Shown here: positions 1,997 to 2,525 of the stretch, piece by piece
Layout of the letters: every line of letters begins with the position of its first letter
Position numbering within the stretch: position 1 is the stretch's first letter
From: an uncultured Gammaproteobacteria bacterium
Lineage (GTDB): Bacteria > Patescibacteriota > Patescibacteriia > SG8-24
Assembly: GCA_964491475.1 (NCBI GenBank)
Contig: CAZBFO010000002.1
Span: forward strand, 16,501-80,500
Length of the DNA stretch: 64,000 nt
Reading direction: 5' to 3'
Program-made: the position numbers and the translations under genes
Notes under the pieces: model-generated
The model's input: only the letters and a program-made list of their open reading frames with translations
The model's database searches: none
Told to the model about the DNA's origin: nothing

Positions 1997-2063
1997 CCTC
2001 CTATGAAACCTCGATGTCTCGAGAGCTCGTAGGAGGAGCGGTCCGACACGAGCGTGTCGGACC
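1997..2063 (+). ncRNA. candidate structured RNA element, copy 1: 40-nt bipartite hairpin (CCTCCTATGA..TCGTAGGAGG) followed by a perfect 10-bp hairpin GGTCCGACAC-GAGC-GTGTCGGACC
   Basis: Seen directly. The outer 10-bp stem has one U-G pair. The inner 5-bp stem is CTCGA/TCGAG. The second hairpin contains GGUCCGA. Strand is assigned from the G-U wobble and is uncertain. Confidence 0.35.
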
Positions 2064-2466
2064 GTCCAAGAGAGTTGCCTGCGAACGGCCTCGGGATGTC
2101 GACTGGCGACAGGGATTATTCATCCGTGCGCCACGTCTTTCCTTTGGATATTGAAGTATCCTCGTCCAGCAGTCCTCGAGCCGGTGCGATGCGACGATTT
2201 GTCCTCATGAGATTGGCTGGGCTCCGCCCACACCCCGCATTTCTCTATGCAAGGAGTCCTGGTCTCAATAAGGGTTCGTCGCACGGCGGTCCGGCGGTCA
2301 AAGGACGATCTGCGGACAAGGCTGCTTCCAGGACCTTTGGGGCATAACCCCGAAGTCCGTTCGCCTGCGTTATCCCGTTTTCACGGGGCCGTCGTGCGGT
2401 GATTCTTATGCCAAGATCACCGCACGCCGCTGTCACGGTCGTGGAGGGAACGTCATGGTTCAAAAT

Positions 2467-2525
2467 CCTCCCATGAAACCTCGATTTTCGAGGGCTCATG
2501 GGAGGAGGCGAGCAAAATTGCTCGC
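2467..2525 (+). ncRNA. candidate structured RNA element, copy 2: CCTCCCATGA..TCATGGGAGG bipartite hairpin followed by GCGAGCA-AAAT-TGCTCGC hairpin
   Basis: Same architecture as copy 1. Two compensatory changes (T-A to C-G, and U-G to U-A) keep the outer stem paired. The inner CTCGA/TCGAG stem is conserved and the loop differs. Confidence 0.35.

Follow-up and report, generated by a model that had tools for sequence, protein, structure and literature searches.

Putative boundary hairpins and a previously undescribed structured RNA linked to the Ro60 gene of CPR-type bacteria

Two hairpin pairs recognized earlier in the 64,000-nucleotide stretch of DNA analysed here (the window) most likely lie inside the long non-coding leader of rsr, the gene for a Ro60/Rsr orthologue, on the strand opposite to that of the original prediction. 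We propose, with a probability of roughly 0.55, that these pairs are boundary, or 'punctuation', modules of a long structured minus-strand transcript that shares its strand with rsr. The whole non-coding block is linked to this gene, and it also contains copies of a structured RNA, here called the core RNA, which is previously undescribed, absent from Rfam and distinct from YrlA. A connection to Ro60 had been suspected from the hairpins alone, and the suspicion was a good one: the neighbouring minus-strand gene at 141–1820 is rsr, and among the 382 homologues of its product, those with a name are 60 kDa SS-A/Ro or TROVE entries from CPR MAGs. The gene and the hairpins around it are as follows (related loci are numbered with the prefix L).

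34–73, minus strand: diverged bipartite stem-loop, the third copy, just beyond the rsr stop codon (R1 28.6 bits, against 18.1 on the plus strand)
141–1820, minus strand: rsr, Ro60/Rsr orthologue of 559 aa (Pfam TROVE, E=2.5e-12; vWA_Ro60, E=2.3e-11)
1843–1859, minus strand: hairpin GUCCGA-CGGAA-UCGGAC in the rsr 5' UTR, read directly and common to L001, L002 and L003
1987–1998, minus strand: small hairpin P0, GGAG-AAGG-CUCC, which covaries between loci and overlaps the last 2 bp of copy 1
1997–2036, minus strand: bipartite stem-loop copy 1, CCUCCUACGAG-C-UCUCGA-GACA-UCGAGG-U-UUCAUAGGAGG (R1 57 bits, against 36 on the plus strand)
2040–2063, minus strand: hp2 of copy 1, GC hairpin GGUCCGACAC-GCUC-GUGUCGGACC, a perfect inverted repeat of 10–12 bp
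2390–2429, minus strand: hairpin of 14 bp that separates copy 2 from the long core RNA, an inverted repeat (93% complementary) present in the predicted fold
2467–2505, minus strand: bipartite stem-loop copy 2 (R1 57.8 bits, against 45 on the plus strand)
2508–2525, minus strand: hp2 of copy 2, GC hairpin GCGAGCA-AUUU-UGCUCGC, read directly
3485–3513, minus strand: putative sigma-70-like promoter, TTGACA-17 nt-TATTGT with an extended -10 TG (10/12 consensus positions plus the TG)

Read on the plus strand, copy 1 is CCTCCTATGA-AAC-CTCGA-TGTC-TCGAG-AGC-TCGTAGGAGG and copy 2 is CCTCCCATGA-AAC-CTCGA-TTT-TCGAG-GGC-TCATGGGAGG, letter for letter what had been claimed, and their outer stems differ by the two changes described at the time, T-A to C-G and T.G to T-A. 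The second hairpins were also given with correct coordinates and sequences, GGTCCGACAC-GAGC-GTGTCGGACC at 2040–2063 and GCGAGCA-AAAT-TGCTCGC at 2508–2525, but the spacer reported as GAG is in reality AGC (copy 1) or AG (copy 2). On the minus strand, the module reads 5' to 3' as a variable GC hairpin (hp2), 0–3 nt, and a stem-loop of about 18 bp comprising 11 bp, a one-base mismatch and 6 bp. Copy 2 and the copy at 34–73 both fold into 11 bp, a 1x1 mismatch and 6 bp (-28.2 and -27.9 kcal/mol, respectively), and the loop of copy 1 is a GNRA-type GACA. The hp2 of copy 1 sits directly 5' of its stem-loop and 17 nt beyond the end of the long core RNA, the Saccharibacteria locus L005 has a homologue of the hp2 of copy 2, GAGCAAAAU...AUUUUGCUC, and a GC hairpin at 74–96 lies directly 5' of the copy at 34–73, an array found equally in L001 and L003.

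The original prediction read the covariation as the mark of a functional RNA structure, as opposed to a coding repeat, and 18 non-identical copies from eight loci now strongly support a conserved structure of this kind. Paired cells amount to 91.8% across these copies compared with 38–57% in slid registers, 12 of the 17 stem-loop pairs have changes on both sides, and none of 500 shuffles reached the observed values. In L001, the inner hairpin has been swapped for unrelated sequences that still pair, and P0 varies from GGAG/CUCC in the window to GGAA/UUCC in L003 and GGAGC/GCUCC in L001. A hairpin of unrelated sequence occurs 0–3 nt 5' of the stem-loop in 17/18 copies. The 3' arm carries a conserved Shine-Dalgarno-like GGGAGG or AGGAGG, and the stem retains one conserved C.A mismatch on the rsr strand. 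A coding reading was rejected, as the short ORF that starts at the ATG shows no conservation and L003 lacks this ATG altogether (CCTCCTAGAAGA). Searches of Rfam at gathering and E<=10 thresholds returned no family for either the hairpins or the cores; a PreQ1 match at 2454–2478 (15.5 bits, E=7.8) was set aside as chance.

Could the repeat instead act as DNA, as a protein-binding palindrome or a locally spread REP/MITE-like element with no RNA function? The stem-loop is near-palindromic, which is why both strands score with the model, and some loci hold several copies (five in L003 and five in L070). Within the 64-kb window, however, the full pattern occurs exactly twice (0 expected from 100 shuffles), and the covariance-model search suggested with the original prediction recovers just three copies, all flanking rsr and none elsewhere. 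As the model matches only around rsr, the stem-loop is not a dispersed repeat within these 64 kb, and the dozens of unrelated sites that would mark a REP/MITE-like element are not seen there. Pairing is kept through 26 G.U cells and the full replacement of an inner hairpin, a pattern that preserves RNA structure and not a DNA-binding site. All copies face the same way with respect to rsr, neither terminal inverted repeats nor target-site duplications were observed, and a scan of viral contigs for the linked core gave no match. We regard a purely DNA-level role as extremely improbable.

The core RNA occurs in short, long and circularly permuted forms, and the window contains the latter two.

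2081–2364, minus strand: long-type core RNA, a closed domain of ~285 nt (R2 48.3 bits, E ~1e-10, on the minus strand only)
1899–1975, minus strand: circularly permuted short core copy with all conserved core elements, its 3' half ahead of its 5' half

The long domain, whose core proper spans 2150–2323, is closed by a terminal stem of GCGAACGG (2364–2357) with CCGUUCGC (2088–2081), and closing stems of unrelated sequence stand at equivalent positions in L001, L003, L070, L032, L063 and L019; its folding z-score is -5.06 on the minus strand versus -1.86 on the plus strand. The permuted copy, which R2 detects as two half-hits (1944–2073 and 1827–1930), runs P1(GGGG)-AGGAC-UGCA-GGCC-GAGG-UUUCUUC ... 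CCUU-GGCC-...-GUCC-GUUGA-P1(CCCC). L001 and L003 share this permuted unit, and its pairing covaries (GGCC:GGCC versus GACU:AGUC). An attempt to draw this first unit in the standard topology, using the GUCC of the GGUCCGA hairpin, scored only 18 bits with mismatches and found no support in L001.

Of 22 related loci, 21 have a core that adjoins rsr and shares its strand, and every CPR rsr locus collected by protein alone contains one, with R2 matches falling within about 1 kb of rsr wherever the gene lies in the locus. Large indels defeated MAFFT and alifold on whole long units, so that cores were compared by per-copy folding and anchored alignments; paired cells reach 96.4%, compared with at most 52% in slid registers. 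One helix has an invariant GUCC that pairs fully with GGAC, and we propose a pseudoknot between GGUCCUGG and CCAGGACU. In a pattern scan of metagenomes, about 40 of the 57 matches lacked both rsr and the partner segment and were put down to chance. Searches of the literature turned up no account of RNAs linked to rsr in CPR bacteria.

We infer the strand and the transcript ends from sequence, and six lines of evidence make the rsr (minus) strand the most likely one. In all loci the orientation of hairpins and cores with respect to rsr is constant, whether they lie upstream or downstream of the gene, and the 49 R2 matches all fall on the rsr strand. Folding of 18 cores is more favourable there (mean ddG 8 kcal/mol, p=0.002) and departs further from that of shuffled sequences (z-scores of -3.96 versus -2.48, p=0.0007). 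On the rsr strand the stem-loop has 26 G.U but 12 C.A cells, and the core has an invariant U.G in CCUU:GAGG. Start codons follow the stem-loop on this strand in L015, L008 and L070; type III hammerheads at 802–877 and 1834–1888 of the Saccharibacteria locus L005 lie on the rsr strand and flank hairpin and cores; and the putative promoter-like site at 3513–3485, a consensus match only, stands at the distal margin of the non-coding block and points towards rsr.

Some observations point the other way. The original prediction had chosen the plus strand from a single U.G wobble, and the evidence went against this choice: at this site the minus strand has a conserved C.A mismatch, which accounts for 8 of the 12 C.A cells, and five further lines favour minus. 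Nevertheless, this position is C.A on the rsr strand in 8/17 copies and a U.G wobble on the other, hairpins folded alone on both strands give a split result, and a hairpin plus U-run comes after several L001, L032 and L063 units when the opposite strand is read. These features could be accommodated by a plus-strand small RNA divergent from rsr, its GGUCCGA hairpin being a Ro60-binding helix of the Y RNA type. Such an RNA would gain from the U.G at stem position 8 (eight cells), from hairpins that are 3–6 kcal/mol more stable on the plus-type strand in L070 and L003_5253, from the U-run arrangements, and from the proximity of GGUCCGA to a Ro60 gene. It is opposed by all six strand arguments and by the failure to find a sigma-70-like promoter in the 76 nt that separate the first unit from the rsr ATG, and a constant antisense orientation on both sides of rsr would have no obvious rationale. 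At AT-rich loci, promoter and terminator scans gave matches on both strands at chance level.

The Y RNA comparison also bears on this reading. The Ro60-binding helix of Y RNAs (RF00019 type) pairs a 5' GGUCCGA with UUGACC or UUGACU, contains a bulged C and forms the stem at the RNA ends. Like metazoan Y RNAs and Yrn1 of D. radiodurans, the window has a GGUCCGA string in a 5' hairpin arm beside a Ro60 gene, and GUCC recurs both as the invariant element of the core helix and within the GUCCGA of the hairpin at 1843–1859. Unlike them, the hairpin at 2040–2063 is a perfect helix with a tetraloop, without a bulge or a UUGACC strand, and the GUCC of the core is fully paired with GGAC. Nor is the GGUCCGA stem conserved, as the orthologous 5' arms on the rsr strand read GGUCUGAC (L001), GGGUUCAG (L003), GGGACCCAG (L002) and GCGCAGAC (L070). 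The RF00019 model found no match in 1800–4150 of the window. The identification of this stem as a Y-RNA-type helix is therefore not supported, and we consider a plus-strand small RNA very unlikely.

The cores are also distinct from YrlA, whose tRNA-like domain consists of a T stem-loop, a closed acceptor-like stem-loop and a D stem-loop with an enclosing anticodon-like stem (PMC4201824; bioRxiv 10.1101/312249). The YrlA model (RF02553) had no match at E<=10 in 1800–4150 of the window. Thresholds of E<=1 or E<=0.1 gave none in a scan of 13 CPR-type rsr loci, and the model recovered the Brevibacillus control L016 upstream of rsr (37.7 bits, E=1e-5). No Rfam tRNA match was obtained on either strand of 1800–4150 or in these 13 loci, and ARAGORN reported nothing at 1–4200; tRNA-like or T-loop readings of GGTTCAAAATCC and GGTTTCGAAGAAACC were discarded, their flanking pairing not being conserved and neither tRNA nor YrlA models matching. 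Certain parallels with YrlA (Chen et al. 2014, PMC4201824) are nonetheless apparent. The cores are often multicopy and lie within about 1 kb of rsr, probably on its strand, which places them inside the bounds used for YrlA (<=4 kb from rsr, same strand); the long core is a discrete domain closed by a stem of its two ends; and one core form is a circular permutation of the other, recalling YrlA as a permuted tRNA. The 5' strand of the long-core closing stem in the window contains GGCGAACG, which fits GNCGAAN0-1G, a motif located near the 5' end of YrlA; the sequence at this position is UGCGAACG in L001 and L003 and unrelated in L070, L071, L032, L063 and L019. In contrast to YrlA, the cores have no set of T, acceptor-like and D stem-loops, and short cores enclose a single hairpin.

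What the hairpin modules do is suggested by their surroundings in other genomes. The original prediction offered, as an alternative, that the stem sequesters a Shine-Dalgarno sequence, and the concept survives, although on the other strand: a GGGAGG or GUGAGG in the 3' arm precedes a start codon by 3–9 nt in six copies, in L015 (rsr itself), L008 (341 aa) and L070 (four ORFs of 50–83 aa), the GGGAGG being paired to CCUCCC or CUUCCC. In L005 and L070, hp2 begins 1–2 nt past a stop codon. In the window, no real ORF follows either copy (copy 1 has no ATG; copy 2 has seven codons from an ATG at +10), and no copy in L001, L002 or L003 combines a Shine-Dalgarno in the stem with a nearby real-ORF start. 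Occlusion of ribosome-binding sites cannot be a universal role, because 56–183 nt separate the L003 copies from the ORF that follows, and no good Shine-Dalgarno is present in the copy at 34–73.

These facts must be weighed against a simpler scheme, in which the stem-loop is purely a translational operator or RNA thermometer that masks the ribosome-binding sites of the rsr operon, for example until heat or stress, and the copies in the window are vestiges whose ORFs were lost or replaced by core RNAs. Known thermosensors such as ROSE and fourU have stems weakened by mismatches. The six copies resemble them in having a GGGAGG arm with a start codon 3–9 nt on and in conserved weak pairs, the C.A and G.U cells, that weaken the stem. 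The purine 3' arm is moreover conserved beyond what pairing needs, with G37 and G39 invariant and 5'-arm changes running from C to U, and window copy 2 retains its ATG. They differ from ROSE and fourU in showing no sequence similarity or Rfam match and in having an accompanying second hairpin, the adjacent hp2, for which a thermometer offers no explanation. Further, 10 of the 18 copies stand without an ORF immediately behind them but keep the full structure and the top model scores, whereas vestiges should decay, and stabilities of -20 to -28 kcal/mol are high for a thermometer. We think it unlikely that gating of translation is the sole function.

Boundary modules remain the preferred reading. 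The analysis demonstrates the structure and its covariation, the link to rsr, the constant orientation and the position ahead of start codons, whereas the functions are proposals. In related genomes, the module stands between the units of the rsr operon, with hp2 after the stop codon of the upstream gene and the second stem-loop ending 3–9 nt before the next start codon, that of rsr in L015, where it would occlude the ribosome-binding site of the next gene. In the window, the modules precede two core RNA copies (2081–2364 and 1899–1975) instead of an ORF. Such a module may gate translation wherever an ORF follows. It may also set units apart by signalling processing or conferring stability, in which case hp2 would shield the 3' end of the unit before it and the long stem could be a target of a double-strand-specific nuclease or a 5' cap structure. 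The proposed arrangement resembles the intercistronic processing hairpins of phage T7 early mRNA (RNase III sites), in which an irregular stem-loop of ~18–20 bp lies between polycistronic units, and a stable hairpin would likewise remain at the 3' end of the upstream unit. The module stem is slightly shorter than that of classical RNase III substrates, and cleavage here is proposed. A further analogy may lie in operon-punctuating, self-cleaving ribozymes, as the hammerheads that flank core RNAs in Saccharibacteria occupy comparable positions; the window has no hammerhead core pattern (CUGAUGA ... GAAA) in 1–4200 and no match to Rfam ribozyme families (E<=10) in 1800–4150.

The core RNAs would be putative, Y-RNA-like partners of Ro60 in CPR bacteria. 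In a bolder version, they would be the missing Y RNAs of CPR/Patescibacteria, devoid of a tRNA-like domain and excised at unit boundaries, by hammerheads in Saccharibacteria and by hairpin modules in the clade of the window, with 5'-OH and 2',3'-cyclic phosphate ends ligated into circles in an RtcB-type reaction. Circular joining would explain why the core is found in two circular permutations, but we hold this scenario as a whole to be quite improbable.

Ro60 and Y RNAs form a conserved RNA quality-control machine. To our knowledge, the tRNA-like YrlA is the only widespread RNA partner of Ro60 in bacteria. In the CPR-type rsr loci examined here YrlA is undetectable, and a different conserved structured RNA, its boundaries marked by hairpin modules, stands beside rsr on the same strand in all but one of the 22 loci. 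Should the cores bind Rsr, they would constitute a new class of Y RNA, would show which features of an RNA partner Ro60 really needs, and would open a way into RNA surveillance in bacteria that are ultrasmall and host-dependent. The hairpin module, for its part, offers a compact system in which the possible partitioning and translational gating of a structured operon transcript can be put to the test.

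The minus-strand ORF at 141-1820 encodes a Ro60/Rsr orthologue (Pfam TROVE and Ro60 vWA domains), and both hairpin pairs lie in an ORF-poor block (1821-3480, about 1.65 kb) that adjoins this rsr gene on its upstream side. The named relatives of this Rsr come from Candidate Phyla Radiation (CPR) MAGs of Falkowbacteria, Saccharibacteria, Uhrbacteria, Doudnabacteria and Paceibacterota, and metagenomic relatives share 70-91% identity with it. We compared L001-L003, 13 genome loci collected by protein alone and metagenome loci recovered via a DNA pattern (L-numbers denote loci with relatives of the window's rsr region). 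Read along the rsr strand, the order in the window goes from a promoter-like site (3485-3513) through about 950 nt of non-coding sequence, module 2, a long core domain, module 1, a permuted core and a GUCCGA hairpin to rsr. A module here is a stem-loop whose 3' arm carries a Shine-Dalgarno-like GGGAGG/AGGAGG, together with a second hairpin. Two of these features in detail:

3513-3485, minus strand: sigma-70-like site with extended -10, facing rsr, 10/12 consensus, at the far edge of the block
1843-1859, minus strand: hairpin GUCCGA-CGGAA-UCGGAC in the rsr 5' UTR, about 25 nt ahead of the start codon

Direct reading of copy 1 (1997-2036) and copy 2 (2467-2505) of the stem-loop returned exactly the sequences originally described, and the perfect second hairpins are present at 2040-2063 and 2508-2525, although the spacers, given as GAG, read AGC and AG. 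The proposal of a covarying, conserved RNA structure holds: R1, a covariance model of the stem-loop, recovered 18 non-identical copies from 8 loci, one of them a third copy in the window, at 34-73. In their alignment, 91.8% of cells are paired, against 38-57% in slid registers, and 12/17 pairs show two-sided changes, values reached by no shuffle. The region upstream of rsr in L001, L002 and L003 is homologous to that of the window and keeps the outer stem, with the inner hairpin swapped for unrelated yet pairing sequences (CCCUU/AAGGG, CCGUUCA/UGAACGG). The second hairpin, of free sequence, abuts 17/18 copies. An ATG had been pointed out after the anti-SD-like CCUCC; it is missing in L003 and is therefore not a start codon. 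Against a chance expectation of none, the 64 kb contain the 40-nt pattern twice, and a relaxed search added only the reverse-strand image of copy 2. A dispersed REP/MITE-like repeat was rejected within the 64 kb examined.

The original prediction favoured transcription of the plus strand from one U.G pair, but six observations favour the minus strand, and we place the RNA on this rsr strand with a probability of roughly 85-90%. On either side of rsr, upstream or downstream, the RNAs keep one and the same orientation relative to the gene. The rsr strand folds better in 14 of 18 cores, by a mean of 8 kcal/mol (p=0.002), with dinucleotide-shuffle z-scores of -3.96 versus -2.48 for the other strand (p=0.0007). 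The hairpin alignment read on the rsr strand contains 26 G.U against 12 C.A cells, eight of the latter at one conserved position, that of the very wobble first invoked. Other genomes have rsr-strand start codons 3-9 nt past the end of the stem-loop: that of rsr in L015, that of a 341-aa ORF in L008 and those of four L070 ORFs (50-83 aa). In L005 and L070 the second hairpin starts 1-2 nt past the preceding ORF's stop codon. The sigma-70-like site faces rsr, and on the rsr strand of three Saccharibacteria loci there are matches to the type III hammerhead that score 38-43 bits (E about 1e-4 to 1e-6), just under the Rfam gathering score of 48.5 bits and in one case checked by eye:

L005, 802-877 and 1834-1888, plus strand: type III hammerheads
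L013, 6854-6908 and 10304-10359, plus strand: type III hammerheads
L012, 8422-8476, plus strand: type III hammerhead

Against this strand, the energies of the hairpins alone are split, and some units are followed by a hairpin and U-run on the opposite one. The rsr-strand reading also turns the 3x3 'internal loop' into G.U, a single mismatch and U.G, and three inner loops then read as GNRA tetraloops.

The repeats flanking the hairpins are two halves of one nested-helix core, 5'-CCUU-s1-(N)UUY-GUCC-KUWGA-[P1]-AGGAC-UGCN-s3-GAGG-WUACUUC-3' on the rsr strand. All four s1:s3 pairs covary, CCUU:GAGG is invariant and includes a U.G, and GUCC:GGAC becomes GUUC:GAAC in two copies; 96.4% of aligned cells are paired, against at most 52% in slid registers. 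The core takes three forms:

Short: P1 is a single hairpin
Long: P1 is a conserved insert of 115-190 nt, and an 8-14-bp terminal stem, unrelated in sequence between clades, closes the whole unit
Circularly permuted: window 1899-1975; also L001, L003 and L070

Searches with R2, a covariance model of the core, gave 49 matches, every one of them on the rsr strand and, wherever the locus includes rsr, no more than about 1 kb away from it. Every CPR locus collected by protein alone has at least one (weak in L009 and L015), the window has them only beside rsr, and the Brevibacillus locus has none. A metagenome pattern search gave 57 matches; those with the partner segment carry rsr whenever the flank is long enough, and the rest were set aside as chance. 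The same scan of viral contigs found none. Separately, the long unit contains a possible pseudoknot (2322-2336 with 2253-2270, minus strand; also L003, L070 and L071), in which GGUCCUGG, on the 5' side of the outer helix, and CCAGGACU, within the insert, are complementary; a compensatory change is seen in L070, where GGUCCCGG faces CCGGGACU. L063 (1-1440, plus strand) holds two tandem repeats of ~730 nt, each comprising one long and one short core plus an AUCGCC...GGCGAU hairpin with a stem that covaries between repeats; a U-run follows the second such hairpin, immediately ahead of rsr.

YrlA is defined by T, acceptor-like and D stem-loops (PMC4201824; bioRxiv 10.1101/312249). In the Brevibacillus locus, our positive control, the Rfam YrlA model (RF02553) picked up a YrlA-like domain on the upstream side of rsr; it had no match in the window or among the 13 CPR-type loci it was run on. 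The rsr-linked RNAs lack those stem-loops, and the YrlA motif GNCGAAN0-1G, found in the window's long-core closing stem, is not conserved across loci. The GGUCCGA stem, likened at first to the Y RNA helix, is a perfect helix whose sequence is not kept in orthologous copies, and so does not qualify as a Y RNA helix. These RNAs therefore belong to neither the YrlA nor the metazoan Y RNA family; their likeness to Y RNAs lies in where they sit in the genome, linked to rsr, and in a closed, modular architecture. The hairpin is reminiscent of operators that sequester the Shine-Dalgarno sequence and of intercistronic processing hairpins, and has no sequence similarity with a curated family. No Rfam family matches hairpins or cores, and the literature searched contained no description of rsr-linked RNAs in CPR bacteria.

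Several features surround these elements. The ~950 nt between promoter-like site and module 2 (2525-3480) are GC-rich, without credible ORF, and matched by neither R1 nor R2. A hairpin pair at 2876-2930 is homologous to L003 about 8140-8190, there directly adjoining a module, and the window appears to carry an insertion of ~350 nt in this stretch. Beyond lies an AT-rich island (3480-3720; GC about 0.50 versus 0.60-0.65 in the rsr-side flank) containing two promoter-like sites back to back, one pointing to rsr (3513-3485, minus strand), the other, identified by eye (TTGACA ... TAGCTT, plus strand), facing a small ORF at 3718. The hairpin at 1843-1859, with 6/7 bases of the Y RNA motif GGUCCGA, also occurs in L001, L002 and L003, is absent from L070, and could be an autoregulatory site. 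Just past the rsr stop codon, four consecutive hairpins are conserved (window 1-140, minus strand; L001 2763-2930; L003 11670-12010); GNRA loops cap the first on the rsr strand (GCAA in the window, GAAA in L001), and the last starts GGUCCGU. Four loci have a tmRNA gene 1-3.3 kb downstream of rsr, encoded on its strand (the equivalent region lies outside the window):

L001, 4109-4453, plus strand: tmRNA
L003, 12680-13032, plus strand: tmRNA
L006, 8046-8472, plus strand: tmRNA
L070, 1-135, minus strand: tmRNA

Elsewhere in the window is a class A RNase P RNA (29368-29867, plus strand; 118 bits), 500 nt long against a 367-position model, with several large insertions of 55-63 nt.

As to function, for module and cores alike we infer from sequence throughout. 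The module is most likely a two-hairpin boundary element between units of a polycistronic, highly structured rsr-strand transcript. Where an ORF follows, the geometry places the ribosome-binding site within the stem, which would thereby regulate translation; where a core RNA follows, as in the window, the module may act in processing or stabilization. The second hairpin would shield the preceding unit's 3' end, while the long stem would serve as nuclease target or 5' structure. Such a processing role would parallel the Saccharibacteria hammerheads: in L005, a small ORF, a module and both cores lie between two of them, just before rsr, and an RNA excised there would therefore have 5'-OH and 2',3'-cyclic phosphate termini. 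The core RNAs are the best candidates for Rsr partners.

The system amounts to Ro60-linked non-coding RNAs with their probable operon punctuation. The hairpins by themselves are of modest interest; what gives them weight is their context, a widespread, circularly permuted RNA, distinct from YrlA, that lies beside Ro60 in ultrasmall bacteria.
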